From Candidatus Methylomirabilis limnetica (lineage in GTDB: Bacteria > Methylomirabilota > Methylomirabilia > Methylomirabilales > Methylomirabilaceae), in contig NZ_NVQC01000014.1 of the NCBI RefSeq assembly GCF_003044035.1, positions 1 to 7,405 of the forward strand: a DNA stretch of 7,405 nucleotides, written 5' to 3'. The position numbers and the translations under genes are program-made. Numbering within the stretch: the first letter of the stretch is position 1; each line of letters begins with the position of its first letter. The notes beneath the pieces were generated by a model. The model was given only the letters and a program-made list of their open reading frames with translations, was not told the DNA's origin and did not search any database. Shown here piece after piece: positions 1-7,405 of this stretch.

Positions 1-541
1 AGGCTCGGGTGTGGCCATCGAAGAACATCTCCTGTCGCTCGTACGGATAGGCCCGCACAAAGGGCATGCCCGAATAGCGCGATCGCATACAGAAGAGCTT
101 GACCTGCCGCTCCTCTCCTGCCATGCGGACCCAGGCAGCTCCCCAGTCGACTTCCGCCTCCTGCGCGAGCTCCGGGTCTAAGGGGATGACCGCTGTGACT
201 GTCGGCCATCCCAGCCGAGCCTTCTGCTCCCGCACCCATCGTCTAACTGTCGACTCCGCACCCGGAAAGGCATACTCTTCGACCAGTCGGGTCCAGATCC
301 GGTGCGCCGTGTGGCGATGCTTCTTGGGGGTCTCCTGATCCGTGCGGAGCCAGCCCTCGATGATGGCGGCGACCGAGTCCATCACCCGGGAGGCCGGTTC
401 GTGCCTCCTCCGGTACTTAGGCTCCCAGCCAGCTAGAACCTTGCGGATCGTTTTGCGTGTATGCCCAGTCTCCCGCGCGATCTGACGAATACTCTTCTGA
501 TACACCCGAGCGGCCGTCCTGATGAGCTCGTACTGATCCAT
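1..541 (-). CDS. istA: IS21-family transposase IstA, N-terminal ~180 aa (remainder lies beyond the left edge)
   Basis: Hand translation of the reverse complement from ATG (541..539) has no stop down to position 1. It reads MDQYELIRTAARVYQKSIRQIARETGHTRKTIRKVLAGWEPKYRRRHEPASRVMDSVAAIIEGWLRTDQETPKKHRHTAHRIWTRLVEEYAFPGAESTVRRWVREQKARLGWPTVTAVIPLDPELAQEAEVDWGAAWVRMAGEERQVKLFCMRSRYSGMPFVRAYPYERQEMFFDGHTRA. The N-terminal HTH, the 'HRHTA.RIW..L.EE..F.G..STV.R.V' block and the start of the catalytic core (EVDWG...) match the IS21 IstA pattern as I know it. It is missing from the ORF track only because it is open at the window edge. Confidence 0.85.
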   Translation of the reverse strand, partial: MDQYELIRTAARVYQKSIRQIARETGHTRKTIRKVLAGWEPKYRRRHEPASRVMDSVAAIIEGWLRTDQETPKKHRHTAHRIWTRLVEEYAFPGAESTVRRWVREQKARLGWPTVTAVIPLDPELAQEAEVDWGAAWVRMAGEERQVKLFCMRSRYSGMPFVRAYPYERQEMFFDGHTRA

Positions 542-613
542 CCCTAGCACTCCTCTCCCTCCCTGTCTCTGGTGTGGTCTTGCTCGAACACACGAGAAAC
601 AGCGAGCGTATCA

Positions 614-662
614 GAGTGGGCTCCTTTTGCTCGATCATTGCCGTGTTAGGTGGGTCCCTTTT
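614..662. repeat. Two copies of a ~15-nt direct repeat in the IS21 subterminal region (GAGTGGGCTCCTTTT 614-628; AGGTGGGTCCCTTTT 648-662)
   Basis: 11 of 15 positions are identical, with a shared core GTGGG-YC-CTTTT. IS21-family ends are known to carry multiple subterminal repeats that serve as transposase binding sites. Confidence 0.4.
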
Positions 663-738
663 ACTCTAGCGAAATCAGAAGGCTGTTACACGTGGCCTCG
701 AAGAGCGCCCCACATTGAAAAAGACAGGCAATGTGTGG

Positions 739-1404
739 ATGAACGAGTTGCCCTTTACTTGGGAGTTGGTGAGCCTCAAACGAGTGTCAGAAATTCAGGG
801 CGGACTAACACTCGGCAAGGTATACGAAGGCCCACTCATCGAGCGGCCATATTTACGAGTTGCCAATGTCCAAGACGGGCACCTCAACCTGCAAGATGTA
901 ACAACCATTGAGGTGCCGGAGGAAGTCGCGCATCGTGTGGAGCTCCGCCCTGGGGACGTTCTGATGACCGAAGGTGGTGATCTTGACAAGCTTGGCAGGG
1001 GAACAGTTTGGAGCGGAGAGATCCCTAACTGCCTGCACCAGAACCACATCTTTGCAATCCGCTGCTTCAAGCATAAGCTGCTGTCGGCCTTTCTTGCCTA
1101 CCTGACTGCATCCCGATTCGGTCGCGATTATTTCGAGGCCACTGGAAAGCGAACAACCAACTTGGCTAGCACCAATTCGACAAAGGTCGGCCTGTTCCCA
1201 ATCCCGCGACCGTCAATTGAGGAGCAACGCGCGATTTGCAAATATCTCGACAATAAGCTCAATGACGTTACTCAGATCGTGAATGGCATTGAAGGCCAAA
1301 TTGCCACCCTCACTGCCTATCGCAAGTCGCTAATTCACGAATGCGTCACCGGCCAGCGGCGGATCGTGGAGGCGGACATCAACCGGGTCAAAACCCATGG
1401 CTAA
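739..1404 (+). CDS. hsdS: Type I restriction-modification specificity subunit HsdS, 5'-truncated: one target-recognition domain plus the C-terminal conserved helix (probable remnant or half-size S)
   Basis: The C-terminal LTAYRKSLIHECVTGQRRI is the conserved distal HsdS helix, and the TRD-like body includes YLRVANVQDG, GDVLMTEGGDLDKLGR and NHIFAIR. The frame is open from 670 upstream of any start codon and encodes RNQKAVTRGLEERPTLKKTGNVWMNELPFTWE. This looks like the central conserved region of a full-length two-TRD HsdS (AVTRGL....K.G..W...P..WE), so the gene is missing TRD1. Possible starts are TTG 715 (ORF track) or ATG 739. The stop TAA at 1402-1404 overlaps the hsdR ATG at 1397. Confidence 0.8.
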   Translation: MNELPFTWELVSLKRVSEIQGGLTLGKVYEGPLIERPYLRVANVQDGHLNLQDVTTIEVPEEVAHRVELRPGDVLMTEGGDLDKLGRGTVWSGEIPNCLHQNHIFAIRCFKHKLLSAFLAYLTASRFGRDYFEATGKRTTNLASTNSTKVGLFPIPRPSIEEQRAICKYLDNKLNDVTQIVNGIEGQIATLTAYRKSLIHECVTGQRRIVEADINRVKTHG

Positions 1405-4318
1405 GAAGAAGAAAGCCCTGGAGCTGACGTTTCAGCAGCACATTGCGGATTACCTCATCCGCGAGCACAAATATGGCGTGCTGGAGCAGTCCGACATCAC
1501 GGACAACGAGCACTTCATCGCGGAAGACCAGCTCTGGGCCTTCCTGAAAGCCAGTCAGGCTGACCAGCTGAAGAAGCTGGTGGACGATTACGGCACGGAC
1601 GCGCGGGAGGAAGTCTTCAAGGCACTGCGCAAGGAACTGGAGTACACGCCGCTATGGATGCTGTTCCGGCAGGGACTCAAAGTGCGCGGGCTGGAGTTCC
1701 GGCTCTTCTATCCCAAGCCGCGCTCCGCCGCGAGCGCCGCCGCTGCCAAGTATGCGGAGAACCGCATCACCTTCCGCCCCCACTTCTACTTCAGCGACGC
1801 GAATCACGAGATTGACTTCGTCTTCTACCTCAACGGCTTGCCCATCGTGGCGCTGGAGCTGAAGCACGAGGCCAACCAGAACGTCGAGCACGCCGTGGCG
1901 CAGTTTGTGGCCCGCGATCACACACATAAGATTTTCCAGCATCCCTTCCTCTATTTGGCTGTGGACACCTCGGAGGTGAAGGCTGCCACCGACCCGCACC
2001 GAGAGGAGAACTTCCGCTGGCACAACATGGGGCTGACCAACACGGCCACGAATGCCGCCGAGTACCCGGTCGAGTTCCTCTATCGCGAGGTGCTGTCGCA
2101 GGGGCAATTGCTGGAGGCGCTGTCGTTCTTCCTCGTCCGCGTGCCCGAGCGTGAAGCCGAGGACGACAAACCGGCGCGTCCGGCCTCCACGATCTTTCCG
2201 CGGTATCACCAAAGCCGACTGGTGCGGCGGGTGGCGGAGGACATCACGGCCCACTTCGCCACGGCGGGCGACATCGGCAAAAAGTATCTGGCCGACCATT
2301 CCGCCGGCAGCGGCAAGACGCTCTCCATCTGCTGGCTGGCCGACCGGTTGCACAGCCTCTTCAGGCCTGACACGAACGAGAAGCTGGTGGACATCACCTT
2401 CATCCTCACCGACCGCAAATCGCTCGACACGAACATCCGCGAGGACATCGACAAGTTCACCCACCTCAAGGATGTGGTGGGCATCGCGAAAAAAGCCGAC
2501 GACCTGCCGCGCTTCCTCAAGGAACGGAAATCGATCATTGTCACCACGCAGCAGAAGTTTGCCTGGGTGCTGGAGGAAATTCAGAAGAACCCGGAATTGA
2601 AGAAGCTGCGGGTGGCGTTCCTGATTGATGAAGCCCACCGCTCGCAGGAAGGCCAGATGGGCGCAGCCATCCGCCTGCCGTTCCGCAAGGAAGGCGAGCC
2701 GGACGAAGAAGCTCCCGATGAAGATCTCGAAGAGCAGATTGCCAAGGTCATCCGCGAGCACGACCTGAATCAGTTGTTCGTCGCCTTCACGGCCACACCG
2801 GCACCGGCCACCGTGTCGATGTTTGGCAAGCCGTTCGACAGCTACACCGAGGCGGAGGCCATCGCCGAGGGCTATATCGTGGACGTGGCGGCGAGCATTA
2901 TTTCCTACAAGACGCTCTATAACCTGCATTGCCCCATCGTCCCGCAGCCGGACGAGGAGAAGCTCTACCCCAAGGGCGTCGTGTCCAAGGCGCTCCAGAA
3001 CGTGGCGTTTCAGGACGACGGGCTGATCCAGTACAAGGCGGAGGTGATGCTGCGCATCTTCGAGAAGGATGTAAAGCCGCTCATCGGTGGACGTGCCAAG
3101 GCGATGATCGTCACCTCGTCCCGCGTGGCCGGGCTGCGGTATTTCAACATCATCAAGGAGAAGCTCAAGGAGCGCGGTGCCGACTACAAGGTGCTCTATG
3201 CGTTCTCTGATTTCGTTCATCCGGAGACGAACGAAGCAATCAGCGAATACGCCGTGAATGAGCTGCAGCCAGCCGAACTGATCGAGAACCGGTTCGAGGG
3301 CGACGACTACCGGATCATGGTCGTCGCGAACAAATTTCAGACCGGCTTCGACCAGCCCTTGCTCGCGGGAATGTTCCTCGACAAGCCGGTGCTGGATCGC
3401 AACGCCGTGCAGACGGTTTCGCGACTGAACCGCTGCTACCATGGCAAGAAGGATGTCGTAGTGGTCGACTTCACCAACAACGCGAAACAAATACTCAAAG
3501 CCTTTGCGAAGTATCGGAAGGGGACGCCGTTCGAGCCAGAGGAACCGGATCAAGAGACCTCCCCAAAGCTGCACACGGAGATTCTCGCTACGGGGGTCTT
3601 CACCCAGAAGGACGCCGCCGACGTGCTCGCGCTGCTCAGGAGCGGGACGGATGCGCAGGTGCAATTCCAGGTGAACGCCTTGCGGATGCGCTTTCAAGCG
3701 AAGCTCACCGGTTGGGAAGACCGCAAGGCGTTCGTCTATCTGCTGGCCCGCTTCGTGAAAAGTTTCCATTTCCTCGCCTGCTTCTTCACTTACTCGCCGC
3801 AGATTCAGGAGTTCGTCACCTTCGCTGAATGGGTCGGCCCGCAGCTCATCAAGGTCGGAACCGTATCCGACCTGATGAAGCAGATTCGCGCCACCGTGGT
3901 CACCAAGGTGGCGGTGCAGTATCAGGGCGTAACGACCAGCGGTGGCCCGGTGAAGCTACAGCCGGGCAAAGGAAAAGGCGGCGCAGGCCCGGTGCCAGTG
4001 AAGTCATCCGTGCAAGACATGATCGCGCAAATTCTCGCCAAACATCAAATCACCGACGAGGAAGCGCTCTACATCAAACAGGTGACGGAGGAGAAGATCG
4101 CCGACCCGGCCATCCGCACCACCGTCCAGGCGCACCGCGACGACCGCATGTATCTCGAAGGACCGTATCGCGGACAGGTCAACGGCGACATTCAGGAGAC
4201 CTACGATGCACGCGCGCGTTACGACGAACTCGCCGACCCGAAATACACCGACACCGGCGGCATCTTCGACATTATGGCCGTGACGGTTATTCAAACCCAT
4301 TTGTCCCTCGCTGCCTGA
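1397..4318 (+). CDS. hsdR: Type I restriction enzyme R subunit (HsdR), 973 aa
   Basis: N-terminal PD-(D/E)xK nuclease motif IDFVFYLNGLPIVALELKHE (D at ~1814, ELK at ~1856-1864). SF2 helicase motifs are present: Q-motif YHQSRLV, motif I HSAGSGKTLS (~2303-2320), motif II LIDEAHRSQ (~2621-2647), motif III FTATP, FQTGFDQPLL, and motif VI QTVSRLNR. The 8-nt overlap with hsdS (ATGGCTAA) suggests translational coupling. Confidence 0.88.
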   Translation: MAKKKKALELTFQQHIADYLIREHKYGVLEQSDITDNEHFIAEDQLWAFLKASQADQLKKLVDDYGTDAREEVFKALRKELEYTPLWMLFRQGLKVRGLEFRLFYPKPRSAASAAAAKYAENRITFRPHFYFSDANHEIDFVFYLNGLPIVALELKHEANQNVEHAVAQFVARDHTHKIFQHPFLYLAVDTSEVKAATDPHREENFRWHNMGLTNTATNAAEYPVEFLYREVLSQGQLLEALSFFLVRVPEREAEDDKPARPASTIFPRYHQSRLVRRVAEDITAHFATAGDIGKKYLADHSAGSGKTLSICWLADRLHSLFRPDTNEKLVDITFILTDRKSLDTNIREDIDKFTHLKDVVGIAKKADDLPRFLKERKSIIVTTQQKFAWVLEEIQKNPELKKLRVAFLIDEAHRSQEGQMGAAIRLPFRKEGEPDEEAPDEDLEEQIAKVIREHDLNQLFVAFTATPAPATVSMFGKPFDSYTEAEAIAEGYIVDVAASIISYKTLYNLHCPIVPQPDEEKLYPKGVVSKALQNVAFQDDGLIQYKAEVMLRIFEKDVKPLIGGRAKAMIVTSSRVAGLRYFNIIKEKLKERGADYKVLYAFSDFVHPETNEAISEYAVNELQPAELIENRFEGDDYRIMVVANKFQTGFDQPLLAGMFLDKPVLDRNAVQTVSRLNRCYHGKKDVVVVDFTNNAKQILKAFAKYRKGTPFEPEEPDQETSPKLHTEILATGVFTQKDAADVLALLRSGTDAQVQFQVNALRMRFQAKLTGWEDRKAFVYLLARFVKSFHFLACFFTYSPQIQEFVTFAEWVGPQLIKVGTVSDLMKQIRATVVTKVAVQYQGVTTSGGPVKLQPGKGKGGAGPVPVKSSVQDMIAQILAKHQITDEEALYIKQVTEEKIADPAIRTTVQAHRDDRMYLEGPYRGQVNGDIQETYDARARYDELADPKYTDTGGIFDIMAVTVIQTHLSLAA

Positions 4319-4322
4319 GGCC

Positions 4323-4985
4323 ATGAGCAAGACGATTCACGACATCCCCGAAGCCGACCGACCGCGCGAGAAGCTCCTGCGCAAAGGTGCGGCTGCACTG
4401 AGCGACCAGGAACTGCTTGCCGTGCTCCTCGGCAAAGGCACACCCGGTATGGACGTCATGACGCTGGCCTCCAAGCTGGCGCGACTCATTGACGAGAAGG
4501 GACTGGCCGTGAAGGCCGAGGATCTCTCGCAGTTTGCGGGCGTCGGTGACGCCAAGGCGACCTTGATCCTCGCGGCCATCGAGTTCGCCCGCCGCCGCAT
4601 CAAACCGGAAGGCGCGAAGATCGTGACCCCTGCCGACTTGCTGCCGCACGTCCGCCATTACGCCGACCGCAAGCAAGAGCATTTCCTATGCGCCAGCATC
4701 AACGGTGCCAACGAGATTCTGAACATCCGCGTGGTGTCCATTGGACTCATAGACCGCAGCCCCGTGCATCCGCGTGAAGTCTTCGCCGATGCCCTCTCCG
4801 ACCGCGCCTCCGCCGTCATCGTCGCCCACAATCACCCGAGCGGGGGGCTCGGACCATCGCCCAGCGACATCGCCATCACCGCACAACTCAAGGCGGCAGG
4901 TGCAGTCGTTGGCATTGAGTTGCTTGATCACATCATCTTCAACAGGACCGGATACTTCAGTTTTCTTGAAGAGGGCAAGCTGTAG
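4323..4985 (+). CDS. radC: RadC-family JAB/JAMM domain protein (UPF0758), 220 aa
   Basis: The N-terminal helix-hairpin-helix region has the typical LSDQELLAVLLGKG signature. The C-terminal JAMM motif is complete: E (HPREVF) ... HNHPSG (from ~4827) ... SPSD. The gene starts 4 nt after the hsdR TGA (4316-4318). Confidence 0.9.
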   Translation: MSKTIHDIPEADRPREKLLRKGAAALSDQELLAVLLGKGTPGMDVMTLASKLARLIDEKGLAVKAEDLSQFAGVGDAKATLILAAIEFARRRIKPEGAKIVTPADLLPHVRHYADRKQEHFLCASINGANEILNIRVVSIGLIDRSPVHPREVFADALSDRASAVIVAHNHPSGGLGPSPSDIAITAQLKAAGAVVGIELLDHIIFNRTGYFSFLEEGKL

Positions 4986-5017
4986 GGCGATCTGATGTCG
5001 CGCATATCAGCAGGGGC

Positions 5018-5072
5018 GCCTAACAACAGCATGCAGCTGACGGCGCTGCGCGCCGCAGCTGATGCTGGGCGT
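5018..5072 (+). repeat. Imperfect inverted repeat / long hairpin forming the 5' exon flank of the intron. It is attC-like once joined to 5815..5819, and could alternatively act as the radC terminator stem.
   Basis: GCCTAAC (5018-5024, fits RYYYAAC) is followed by spacer AAC. The stem is AGCAT(G)CAGCTG(A)CGGCGC (5028-5046), loop TGC, then GCGCCGCAGCTGATGCT (5050-5066). That gives 17 bp with two extrahelical bases, G5033 and A5040. Spacer GGGC follows, then GT (5071-5072). There is no downstream T-tract. Confidence 0.6.
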
Positions 5073-5740
5073 GTGTGCCGGGCATGGCACAGAACTGACG
5101 GGGTGCAAGTCCCCGTGCCAGGTTTAAGCAGAGCCGAAGGCTAGGAGAAGGGCAAGGGCGTCATCGTGAGGTGGGGTCCGAAGGAAGCCCAATCCAAAAG
5201 TGCGGGGCGACGAACAGGAACCGGATAGGGGGTGTGGTACGCTCGGGACGAGCGGGCACGTGACCGCGAAGTCCTCCATCTGCGATTGGGGCGTGCTTTA
5301 TAAATCCGGCGTCTACGCATGGAAAGCTCTGTGTCTTACCCCGGGAGGCCTGCACGGTGTCTACGGGAGTGATAGGGTATGCGCCTAGTGAGTCCTACGA
5401 ACGTGGAAACCCTGAAACAAGGTATGGCGAAACCTAAGTCACCCTGTTTGGACTGAGAGGGGAGCAATCCACTTTGACCGTCGTGCAGGAGTCAGCAGAG
5501 GGCATAGTAGGTACGAGGCAGGCGAGGCTAGTGAGGCACTCCAGAGCCGAAAGGCGGAGAAACAGATAGGCCAAGCCGCAACGTCTTGTACTGAAGGCCC
5601 GAACGGTTGAAAGGGTCAGTAAGCCCTGTGCCCAGTGTGCATAAAGCTGGCGGAAACGTCACTGCTCGAAAGAGCGATGTGCATGGTGGATAGAGGAGTC
5701 CGAACACCCGGTCGGCAGTCTTGCCGAAGTAATCAACCGA

Positions 5741-5774
5741 ACCGCCGTGGTACGTGATCCGTATGCCCGGTGGT
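5741..5774 (+). other. Group II intron domain V (34 nt) with CGC catalytic triad
   Basis: The sequence is ACCGCCGUGGUACGUGAUCCGUAUGCCCGGUGGU. The lower helix ACCGCCG.G pairs with C.CGGUGGU and includes the G.U wobble in the middle of CGC (5743-5745), as in IIC introns. The upper helix is (G)UACG/CGUA(U). The apical loop is not a canonical GNRA and the bulge is 1-2 nt, so the exact pairing needs computation. Confidence 0.75.
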
Positions 5775-5776
5775 GT

Positions 5777-5814
5777 GGGAGGGGGGAGGCCGTGAGGCCC
5801 CTCCCTATCCCGAT
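5777..5814 (+). other. Group II intron domain VI with GUGA tetraloop, bulged branch-point A5807, and 3' splice-site AU
   Basis: GGGAGGGGGGAGGCC (5777-5791), loop GUGA (5792-5795), then GGCCCCUCCCU-A-UCCC (5796-5811). A5807 is unpaired between A5780-U5806 and G5779.U5808. Seven nucleotides (UCCCGAU) follow it to the intron end at 5814, which is the canonical branch-site spacing. Confidence 0.75.
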
Positions 5815-5856
5815 TAGCCGCACTAATCATTTGTAAACACAAGGAAGGCGCCGCCA

Positions 5857-6837
5857 ATGCTTGAAATTAGCAACTGCAACAATATTGATAGCGGGAAAAT
5901 CAGCATTGAGAAGCTGAAGCTGAACATCAAATACGCGATGAACGGAATCGGTAAGAGTACCATTGCGCGTGCCATTGAGCTTCAATTACGAGGCGACGGA
6001 AGCATCAAGGAACTAACGCCTTTTAAGCTGCAGGAATCCGGAGTGGAAGACCAGCAGCCGCAAGTTGCGGGCCTTGATGATGTTAAGAGCGTCAAAGTTT
6101 TTAACGACGACTACATCAACCAATTCGCCTTCAAGCAGGACGAAGTGCTGGCCAATAGCTTTGAGATATTTATCAAAACCGCGGATTACGAAAAGCAGAT
6201 CAATGCAATCGAAGGGATCATCGCAAACATAAAGGAAACGTTCCGAGACTCAGAAGAGATTAACCAGGTCATTTCAGATCTAGCGACTCTCAGCGACAGT
6301 TTTGGAAAATCAAAATCAGGCTACTCTGAAGCAAGCGCTCTAGCGAAAGGAATCGGCAAGGGGAACAAAGTTTCCAACATTCCAGCGGGCCTGGAAAGTT
6401 ATACCGCATATCTGCAGAGCCCACAGAATTCAAAGTGGCTGAAGTGGCTTATGGACGGCAACACCTATTCGAGTCTGTCCGACAATTGCCCATACTGCAC
6501 TTCGCCGACGAAAGACAAGAAGGATGTCATATCGAAAGTGAGCAAGGAATTCGATGCGAAATCGATAGAGCATCTCAATAAAATAATTGCAGTACTCGAC
6601 AGTTTGGGGAAATATTTTTCAAAAGATGCCAATGAAAAGTTGCGCGCACTGACAAACAATATAAAAGGCCTTTCAAAAGAGCAGCTCAGCTACCTCGTCC
6701 GGATAAAGGACCAAGCAGATACGCTGAGATGGAGAATGGTCAACCTGAAGGGCATGACTTATTTCTCCATGAAAGATGCGGGGGAGGTTTCCGATTTCGG
6801 TCCTTCCGGAACGAGTGTGGGTGACCACAACCGGTAG
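5857..6837 (+). CDS. P-loop ATPase N-terminal fragment (AAA_13 / ABC-like, RloC/PrrC-like architecture suspected); native sequence ends ~6778 and the last ~19 codons are read-through into the ISL3 end
   Basis: Walker A in the typical AAA_13 context is LNIKYAMNGIGKSTIARAI (NGIGKST = 5941-5961). It is followed by a long helical, coiled-coil-like region and a CPYC motif (6487-6498) reminiscent of a zinc hook. No Walker B or signature motif appears before the stop, whereas related full-length proteins are, to my knowledge, about twice this size. The RBS AAGGAAGG (5841-5848) precedes the ATG at 5857. The gene is visibly AT-rich compared with its neighbours. Confidence 0.6.
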   Translation: MLEISNCNNIDSGKISIEKLKLNIKYAMNGIGKSTIARAIELQLRGDGSIKELTPFKLQESGVEDQQPQVAGLDDVKSVKVFNDDYINQFAFKQDEVLANSFEIFIKTADYEKQINAIEGIIANIKETFRDSEEINQVISDLATLSDSFGKSKSGYSEASALAKGIGKGNKVSNIPAGLESYTAYLQSPQNSKWLKWLMDGNTYSSLSDNCPYCTSPTKDKKDVISKVSKEFDAKSIEHLNKIIAVLDSLGKYFSKDANEKLRALTNNIKGLSKEQLSYLVRIKDQADTLRWRMVNLKGMTYFSMKDAGEVSDFGPSGTSVGDHNR

Positions 6838-7405
6838 TGGCTGGGTAAGGATGGATATTCGACATCAGGGAGCGATCCGACGAGACTCTTCTAGGGTCGA
6901 AGAGGAGACTGCGGCATGGAAGACAGGCTGTTGTATGCGAAGTTGCTTGGCATCGAGTTCCCGTGGCTGATCAGCAGAGTTCAAGTGGATATGCCGGCGG
7001 AGCGCATCGACGTTTGGGTCGAGGAGGCGTCGGGAGCGCGCTTTGCGTGCGCGGTGTGCCAACAGGACGCGCCGGTGTACGACCACACGCCGGAGCAAGC
7101 ATGGCGACATCTGGATACCTGCCAATGTCGAACCTACGTTCATGCAAGTCTGCCGCGAACCAATTGCCCCAAGGACGGGGTCAAGCAGGTTCGATCTCCG
7201 TGGGCGGAACCGAGGTCGCAGTTCACGCGGTTGTTTGAGATGCGAATGATCGACACGCTCAAGGAATGTGACGTGACGGGTGTGACGCGACTTACGGGAA
7301 CCTCGTGGGACGAGACCTGGGGCGTGATGATGCGTGCGGTCGACCGCGGACTGGCGCGGAAAGACCGGCGCGTGCCGGCGCGCATCGGCATTGACGAGAA
7401 GTCGG
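6780..7405 (+). mobile_element. ISL3-family insertion sequence, left end (boundary approximate, 6775..6790); continues beyond the right edge
   Basis: Composition switches abruptly from AT-rich ATPase coding sequence to GC-rich sequence at ~6778-6785 (…TTCTCCATGAAAGATGCG|GGGGAGGTTTCCGATTTCGG…). An ISL3 transposase gene begins about 135 nt downstream, which is the usual layout for this family. The inverted repeat was not verified. Confidence 0.6.
6916..7405 (+). CDS. ISL3-family transposase, N-terminal ~163 aa (runs off the right edge)
   Basis: Hand translation from ATG 6916 (RBS AGGAG at 6902-6906, in-frame TAG at 6892-6894 upstream) has no stop to 7405. It reads MEDRLLYAKLLGIEFPWLISRVQVDMPAERIDVWVEEASGARFACAVCQQDAPVYDHTPEQAWRHLDTCQCRTYVHASLPRTNCPKDGVKQVRSPWAEPRSQFTRLFEMRMIDTLKECDVTGVTRLTGTSWDETWGVMMRAVDRGLARKDRRVPARIGIDEKS. 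The N-terminal zinc-finger layout (C.VC....YDH....WRHLD......L...PR..CP..GV.QV..PWA...S.FT..FE) and the IGIDE motif are characteristic of ISL3 transposases. Confidence 0.85.
   Translation, partial: MEDRLLYAKLLGIEFPWLISRVQVDMPAERIDVWVEEASGARFACAVCQQDAPVYDHTPEQAWRHLDTCQCRTYVHASLPRTNCPKDGVKQVRSPWAEPRSQFTRLFEMRMIDTLKECDVTGVTRLTGTSWDETWGVMMRAVDRGLARKDRRVPARIGIDEKS

Follow-up and report, generated by a model that had tools for sequence, protein, structure and literature searches.

Group IIC introns, their targeting of integron attC sites, one case of insertion into the attC top strand and ORF-less IIC ribozymes (HYERs) are already described. The crystallised IIC intron, O.i.I1 of O. iheyensis, carries a CGC triad, starts with GUGUG and has a short EBS1. 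HYERs, or hydrolytic endonucleolytic ribozymes, were reportedly presented by Liu et al. in 2024 (Science 383:eadh4859). The classical IIC-attC introns (S.ma.I2, E.c.I7 and Kl.pn.I1) encode an IEP and take the attC hairpin as their target (PMC3001079); they occupy the bottom strand at R'', where they insert at TTGT/T, and lie antisense to the cassettes (PMC3001079, PMC7923331). One top-strand attC intron, from E. cloacae, is on record (cited in PMC7923331). HYERs, according to PMC12990946, cleave RNA or ssDNA hydrolytically without any protein, and recognise their target through a 6-nt site. Finally, ORF-less bacterial group II introns can be served in trans by related IEPs, according to Simon et al. 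2008 as summarised by PMC4424553, and the same is the case for the ORF-less copies of the Thermosynechococcus introns (PMC2882425).

Here we set against these systems a locus of Candidatus Methylomirabilis limnetica, contained in a 7,405-nt stretch of DNA (contig NZ_NVQC01000014.1, positions 1 to 7,405) to which we refer as the window; its features are collected in Table 1. Between radC and the gene for an ATPase that matches the candidate defence protein PDC-S06 and resembles RloC, a wobble nucleotide-excising tRNase, lies a gap of 871 nt. The sequence-only reading had proposed that this seemingly intergenic gap, free of any credible ORF, holds a complete group IIC ribozyme on the strand of the flanking genes, and that a gene-only annotation would miss it. 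Our analysis agrees on these points: the apparent intergenic DNA contains a 742-nt, ORF-less intron in which the six domains are present, as Rfam, covariation and the class C features indicate. The ORFs of the gap matched no Pfam family, and tblastn with a related intron RT as query detected no RT remnant in it; two of these ORFs, one of 109 aa in antisense (5528-5857) and one of 62 aa (5200-5388), neither with a Pfam match, were taken as chance. No RT-encoding intron copy was found within the window.

That 5073-5814 is a group II intron ribozyme is confirmed, with a signal far above chance. Of the Rfam models to which the sequence-only reading had pointed as a check, those for the first four domains gave significant scores: group-II-D1D4-3 (RF02001) matches 5160-5334 with 124.2 bits (E 5e-26; gathering cut-off 32), and group-II-D1D4-1 (RF01998) matches 5454-5555 with 36.4 bits, just above its cut-off of 35. 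Intron_gpII (RF00029, domains V/VI) matches 5740-5814 with 27.3 bits, under its cut-off of 40; this match comes from a permissive search of 4950-5900, and its E value of 0.004 refers to that 951-nt stretch. The sub-threshold score of RF00029 is explained by the bulged U and the pentaloop that D5 has in this intron lineage. All three matches lie on the + strand, in the order expected for a group II intron. Excision of exactly 5073-5814 yields a contiguous attC, which aligns colinearly with an intact site.

Table 1. Coordinates of the intron, its target site and the neighbouring genes in the window
Feature	Position	Strand	Basis or remark
IS21-family transposase, N-terminus	2-541	-	runs off left end of window
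hsdS	715-1404	+	only C-terminal half of S-subunit profile matched
radC (RadC-like JAB domain protein)	4323-4985	+	Pfam PF04002, E 1e-37
5' exon, 5' part of attC-type site	5018-5072	+	R'' GCCTAAC 5018-5024; imperfect palindrome 5027-5067; GT 5071-5072 opens R' core
IBS1	G5069-C5070-G5071-U5072	+	pairs with EBS1
Complete ORF-less group IIC intron	5073-5814	+	Rfam matches in order; ends fixed by alignment with related introns
Domain I	5073-5349 (3' limit approximate)	+	starts GUGUG; basal stem 5078-5082/5340-5344; RNAalifold, Rfam D1D4-3
EBS1 ACGU	5258-5261	+	within loop GCACGUGA 5256-5263, closed by 5252-5255/5264-5267
Domain II	5353-5482 (limits approximate)	+	~130 nt, expanded; MFE fold z -1.1, weak alone
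J2/3 and domain III	5487-5603 (limits approximate)	+	terminal extension 5508-5600; fold z -4.4; D1D4-1 covers 5454-5555
Domain IV, ORF-less	5604-5739	+	CGGUUGA 5604-5610 pairs with UCAACCG 5733-5739; encloses two internal hairpin regions
Domain V	5741-5774	+	34 nt; triad C5743-G5744-C5745; G5744-U5771 wobble; bulged U5748; AU bulge 5763-5764; UGAUC loop 5755-5759
Domain VI	5777-5811	+	4-bp basal helix; bulged U5806 and branch-point A5807; GUGA loop 5792-5795; then G5812-A5813-U5814 3' end
3' exon, remainder of attC R' core (TAGCC)	5815-5819	+	IBS3 = T5815; alignment with intact attC sites
AAA_13 / PDC-S06 (RloC-like) ATPase, N-terminal 45%	5857-6837	+	PADLOC PDC-S06 positions 3-313 of 693, E 4e-116; Pfam AAA_13
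ISL3 transposase gene	6916-7404	+	runs off right end of window

The group II hallmarks follow one another in the right order and at the positions first assigned to them, from the GUGUG start at 5073 through D5 (5741-5774) and A5807 to U5814. The same is true of the CGC triad with its central G.U wobble, and of a D6 with a GUGA loop and a bulged A 7 nt (UCCCGAU) before the end of the intron, which is AU (5813-5814). As for D5, its position and triad were borne out, and its first drawing was amended by the extra bulged U5748 and the UGAUC pentaloop. The loop of D5 in group II introns is usually a GNRA tetraloop; in the lineage described here it is a UGAUC pentaloop, and about three quarters of 92 sequences have the bulged U on the 5' strand of D5.

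Comparison with homologues, which had been suggested as a test of the domain V/VI pairings, found these pairings conserved and D6 covarying. Over 91 distinct sequences, 93.6% of the cells in D5/D6 are standard pairs, as against 44-52% when the 3' partner is slid, and the distal stem of D6 alternates among CG, AU, GC and UA pair types. For D5 the proportion of paired cells reaches 99.8% in the same 91 sequences, a near-invariance that is partly due to the search pattern, which had fixed most of D5. In D1, where GUGUG (5073-5077) is conserved across the intron family, the RNAalifold consensus of 31 family members comprises 80 pairs, with compensatory changes in 43 of them. The EBS1 loop is invariant among the family members, and in the window A5258-U5261 is complementary to G5069-U5072 over 4 bp (ACGU:GCGU); the 5' exons of the family end in CGT, which fits a 4-bp ACGU:RCGU pairing, and by a hand count about 37 of the 43 distinct family sites carry a purine at position -4. 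In the outgroups, loop and exon change together, with AACU facing AGUU in L002 and AAA facing UUU in L004. The first base of the 3' exon is T in nearly every family member.

The intermediate domains are larger than usual for the class and are also shared with relatives. D2 is about 80% identical to the matching segment of the RT-encoding copies L061 and L087, and the D3 extension (5508-5600) is common to L102, L116 and the RT-encoding L066. A nested insertion in D2 or D3 was considered and ruled out, these segments being present in RT-encoding relatives as well. D4 recurs with 90% identity in L088 (Thermodesulfobacteriota) and with about 85% in L127, the sole further copy obtained from a D4-specific metagenome scan, and the 3' exon differs at each site. 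The consensus fold of D4 keeps its helices, with one compensatory pair; the structure rests on a single such pair because only three sequences (window, L088 and L127) share this D4 variant. Its basal helix and 5' hairpin region can still be aligned with RT-encoding relatives.

Assignment of the intron to class IIC is supported by the CGC triad, the 4-bp EBS1-IBS1 pairing, the hairpin target and an endonuclease-less RT/maturase in a relative with ~79-88% identity. The hairpin (5027-5067) is directly upstream of the intron, where in this class it would take the place of an IBS2. The IEPs of L001 (444 aa) and L061 combine an RVT_1 with a GIIM domain and lack an HNH/endonuclease domain, as expected for class C. 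With 742 nt the element does not show the compactness of class IIC (~400 nt without ORF), which is a tendency of the class and not a strict criterion; its size is accounted for by the expanded D2 and D3 and by a D4 of 128 nt. It shares with O.i.I1 the CGC triad, the GUGUG start and the short EBS1. The two differ in target and in D6: the target of O.i.I1 is a terminator and its D6 base is of 3 bp (PMC4748821), whereas the window intron is found in an attC and has a D6 base of 4 bp.

The stem-loop upstream of the intron is an integron attC-type site, of which the intron splits the R' core (GGGCGT|TAGCC). Several observations speak for this: (i) the ends of the site are those of an attC, since R'' GCCTAAC fits RYYYAAC and GT|TAGCC fits GTTRRRY at 6 of 7 positions; (ii) a gap-free alignment is obtained with the 60-nt attC of aadA1, and also with an intact homologue in L052 (3159-3103), a locus where the intact attC is followed by a cassette of ~600 bp and by a second attC carrying an intron; (iii) the 5' arm of the hairpin has two single-base bulges, G5033 and A5040, 6 bp apart; and (iv) introns occupy the same type of attC in two further loci, L010 (Arhodomonas) and L089. 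The attC of L010 is almost identical to that of the window. The predicted folding energies of the window site are -36.9 kcal/mol for the top strand and -37.8 kcal/mol for the bottom strand, and the predicted junction of the ligated exons is GCTGGGCGT|TAGCCGCACTAA. Because the intron interrupts the 3' core of the attC, it is not merely placed after a hairpin.

It was on the hairpin that the sequence-only reading required revision: a long stem-loop is indeed there as the class C target, but it is of the attC type, not a terminator, and its 3' core is interrupted. The stem-loop might otherwise be regarded as the transcription terminator of radC, and the element as an ordinary terminator-targeting IIC intron, given that the majority of IIC introns are found 3' of Rho-independent terminators (PMC4424553), as is the intron of a distant relative, L004. 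However, no T-run is found 3' of the hairpin and no terminator-like site was called, while the RYYYAAC/GTTRRRY-like ends, the two spaced bulges and the alignments with the aadA1 attC and with the intact cassette-bounding attC sites of L052 all contradict a terminator. We find this explanation hardly credible.

In contrast to the classical IIC-attC introns, with which it shares the class, the folded attC hairpin as target and insertion between the GT and the T of an R-box, the window lineage appears to use the top strand at R', with RCGT/T as insertion site (GCGT/T in the window) and in sense to the genes. The strand was deduced from the bulges. Among 42 distinct family sites, 52 single-base bulges fall on the 5' arm and 6 on the 3' arm, and they are mostly A and C. 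The protruding bases of the recombinogenic bottom strand of attC sites are T and G. Bulges of A and C on the 5' arm are the complements of those bases, which places the family introns in the top strand at R'. In agreement with this placement, the introns of the window, L001 and L052 all read in the same direction as the genes beside them. Orientation with respect to the downstream ORF proved a weak test (sense in 78 of 118 cases, against 50% at random positions), and the bulge asymmetry was used instead.

The integron context of the site was searched for in the surroundings. Neither in the window nor in L010 did a strict motif scan, of a kind that would miss the GTTAGCC of the window itself, detect another attC, and among the window ORFs compared with Pfam or NCBIfam there was no integrase; both ends of the contig are occupied by IS elements. 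An orthologous empty site was sought upstream of the ATPase homologues L128-L130, where there is no attC and no intron.

Within the plasmid collection the relative with the best annotation is L001, an intron with ltrA that follows aadA1 in a class 1 integron of the E. coli plasmid pEC732_IMP14. The window matches it with ~79% identity over 5035-5360 and 88% over 5739-5829 (D5-D6 and the first 15 nt of the 3' exon), and both matches extend beyond the intron ends into the flanks. [quoted passage not shown] They differ in that L001 encodes a 444-aa RT/maturase and the window intron none, and in that the latter has the expanded D2 and D3 and the ORF-less D4. A resemblance is also seen in the 3' exons, where TAGCCGCACTAATCA (5815-5830) is similar, beyond the 7-nt attC core, to TAGATGCACTAAGCA (L001 5339-5353), with which the 3'-conserved segment / qacE cassette of class 1 integrons begins.

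The window intron belongs to a widespread environmental lineage in which some copies encode an RT and others are ORF-less. When genomes were scanned with a 33-nt D5/D6 pattern, at least 120 places matched, and the matches listed span Gammaproteobacteria, Desulfobacterota, Planctomycetota, KSB1, Acidobacteriota and other groups; viral contigs, scanned with the D5/D6 pattern, gave no match. Copies with both ends were defined by paired D1 and D5/D6 profile matches, and among the matches listed there are 47 of them, including that of the window's own contig (L003). These fall into three size ranges: 31 measure 1834-2037 nt, nearly all with ORFs of ~300-456 aa; 4 measure 1036-1396 nt and have partial ORFs; and 12, L003 included, measure 613-840 nt and have no ORF longer than 89 aa. 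Leaving the window's copy aside, ORF-less introns thus represent 11 of the 46 complete copies among the matches listed.

Some of these loci deserve individual mention. The 4 copies of intermediate size (L010, L016, L032 and L054, with partial ORFs of 79-221 aa) look like intermediates of ORF loss. A Sansalvadorimonas MAG (L009, L101) carries a 772-nt ORF-less variant with a long D4 insert, at at least two sites with different 3' exons. In the KSB1 MAG OFTM356, seven contigs (L037, L074, L092, L098, L114, L120 and L121) end ~137 nt inside the D5-D6 of the intron, and these ends look like assembly breaks at a multicopy intron. Nine D5-D6 matches (L012, L013, L033, L036, L065, L082, L091, L093 and L111) have no recognisable D1 within 5 kb upstream and may be fragments or have more divergent 5' halves. 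More distant ORF-less IIC introns of ~610-650 nt are carried by the rhizobial plasmids L004 (2396-3046) and L005; that of L004, located between csgH and a curlin gene, directly follows a classic terminator (AAAGGGGCGCCGG..CCGGCGTCCTTTTGCTTT|GTGCG). Introns of the L004/L005 type may, we presume, be the kind of source from which HYER1 (637 nt) came.

[quoted passage not shown] In such a scenario the intron would be co-transcribed with radC and the ATPase gene. EBS1 (A5258-U5261) would hold the end of the 5' exon (G5069-U5072), the CGC triad of D5 would form the metal-ion active site, and A5807 would attack the 5' splice site, with the 4-bp base of D6 and the 7-nt spacer favouring branching. Ligation of the exons would then restore the attC sequence in the RNA. 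Lacking a protein, the intron would need the maturase/RT of a related full-length intron in the same cell, acting in trans, both to splice efficiently and for reverse splicing into single-stranded attC top strands, if any takes place. It would thus be non-autonomous, a MITE-like derivative of its own intron lineage. We infer both the splicing and the trans-acting protein; the trans mode is supported by the recurrence of ORF-less lines at several sites and by their retention of D6 and of the D4 base. A parallel is provided by the ORF-less introns served in trans mentioned above: in both cases an intact ribozyme has lost its ORF and belongs to a lineage with RT-encoding copies, although those introns are of other classes and home to specific sites, whereas the window intron is of class IIC and is found in an attC.

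The state of the neighbourhood invites a less active interpretation, in which the intron would be an immobile relic, no longer mobilised after deletion of its ORF and possibly not even spliced, that persists in a decaying, IS-ridden defence island. The window is bounded by IS elements at both ends, and the loci on either side of the intron are cut by them: the ATPase gene was probably truncated by an IS, the ISL3 gene adjoining its 3' side, and the half hsdS and the lack of hsdM within the window make this look like a type I R-M locus cut by the IS21 element. With its flanking genes decayed and carrying IS21 and ISL3 insertions, the whole region may be under no selection. Moreover, the window has no IEP, the 1036-1396-nt intermediates with their partial ORFs show that ORF decay continues in the lineage, and reviews describe ORF-less bacterial introns as rare and short-lived (PMC4424553). 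On the other hand, all catalytic and exon-binding motifs of the window intron match the family consensus, and its D5-D6 is 100% identical to that of L118. Likewise, the presence of the same ORF-less D4 at three insertion sites, with 10-15% divergence and its structure kept, is unlike a one-off deletion. An immobile relic is therefore, in our opinion, unlikely. A second assembly carries a shorter version of the window, of 6231 nt, at a coverage of 670.

A different fate for an intron without protein would be that of an RNA-only enzyme of the HYER type, a protein-free, guided hydrolytic nuclease acting on RNA or ssDNA (for example a folded attC) and kept for this activity. HYERs are defined, in PMC11754743 and PMC12990946, as ORF-less class IIC introns with short guide pairing, and the window element is itself ORF-less, of class IIC, intact and located in a neighbourhood of defence genes; the 610-650-nt introns of the rhizobial plasmids are related ORF-less IIC elements too. 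HYER1, at 637 nt, and the window intron, at 742 nt, are both natural ORF-less class IIC introns of comparable size (PMC11754743, PMC12990946); the activity, guide length and dimerisation of HYERs are experimental properties. D6 points in another direction. In IIC introns 4 bp at the base of D6 are needed for efficient branching, and a 4-bp base with a 7-nt spacer goes with branching and not with hydrolysis (PMC4748821). The branch-point A and the 4-bp base are both kept in the ORF-less copies, which fits lariat formation and mobility and not hydrolysis only. In addition, our reading of the D3 fold reveals no evident palindrome for D3-mediated dimerisation. We consequently judge a HYER-like role quite improbable, and retain the non-autonomous intron acting through a related protein as the preferred explanation.

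What may be new in these results is how widely the lineage is distributed and how large a part of it is ORF-less. A broader proposal can be made, though we regard it as doubtful: that this is an undescribed, phylum-spanning IIC lineage which homes in sense into the top, non-recombinogenic strand of attC sites, about one quarter of whose complete copies, among the matches listed, are ORF-less mini-introns persisting and spreading as non-autonomous or RNA-only (HYER-like) elements, and that these may affect cassette expression or the availability of attC sites.

For Candidatus Methylomirabilis limnetica, the immediate consequence concerns annotation, since a 742-nt catalytic RNA and an attC site are hidden in what seemed to be empty intergenic DNA. 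Protein-based intron finders miss ORF-less copies such as this one. From the related loci it would seem that environmental bacteria contain ORF-less IIC introns more often than was indicated by surveys of genomes from culture. These loci also suggest that the whole lineage uses the attC top strand, by virtue of which the intron can be co-transcribed with the cassettes and spliced out. Finally, natural ORF-less IIC ribozymes are the raw material for RNA-only nucleases of the HYER type, and an intact and diverse set of them with a defined 4-nt guide would therefore be of practical interest.
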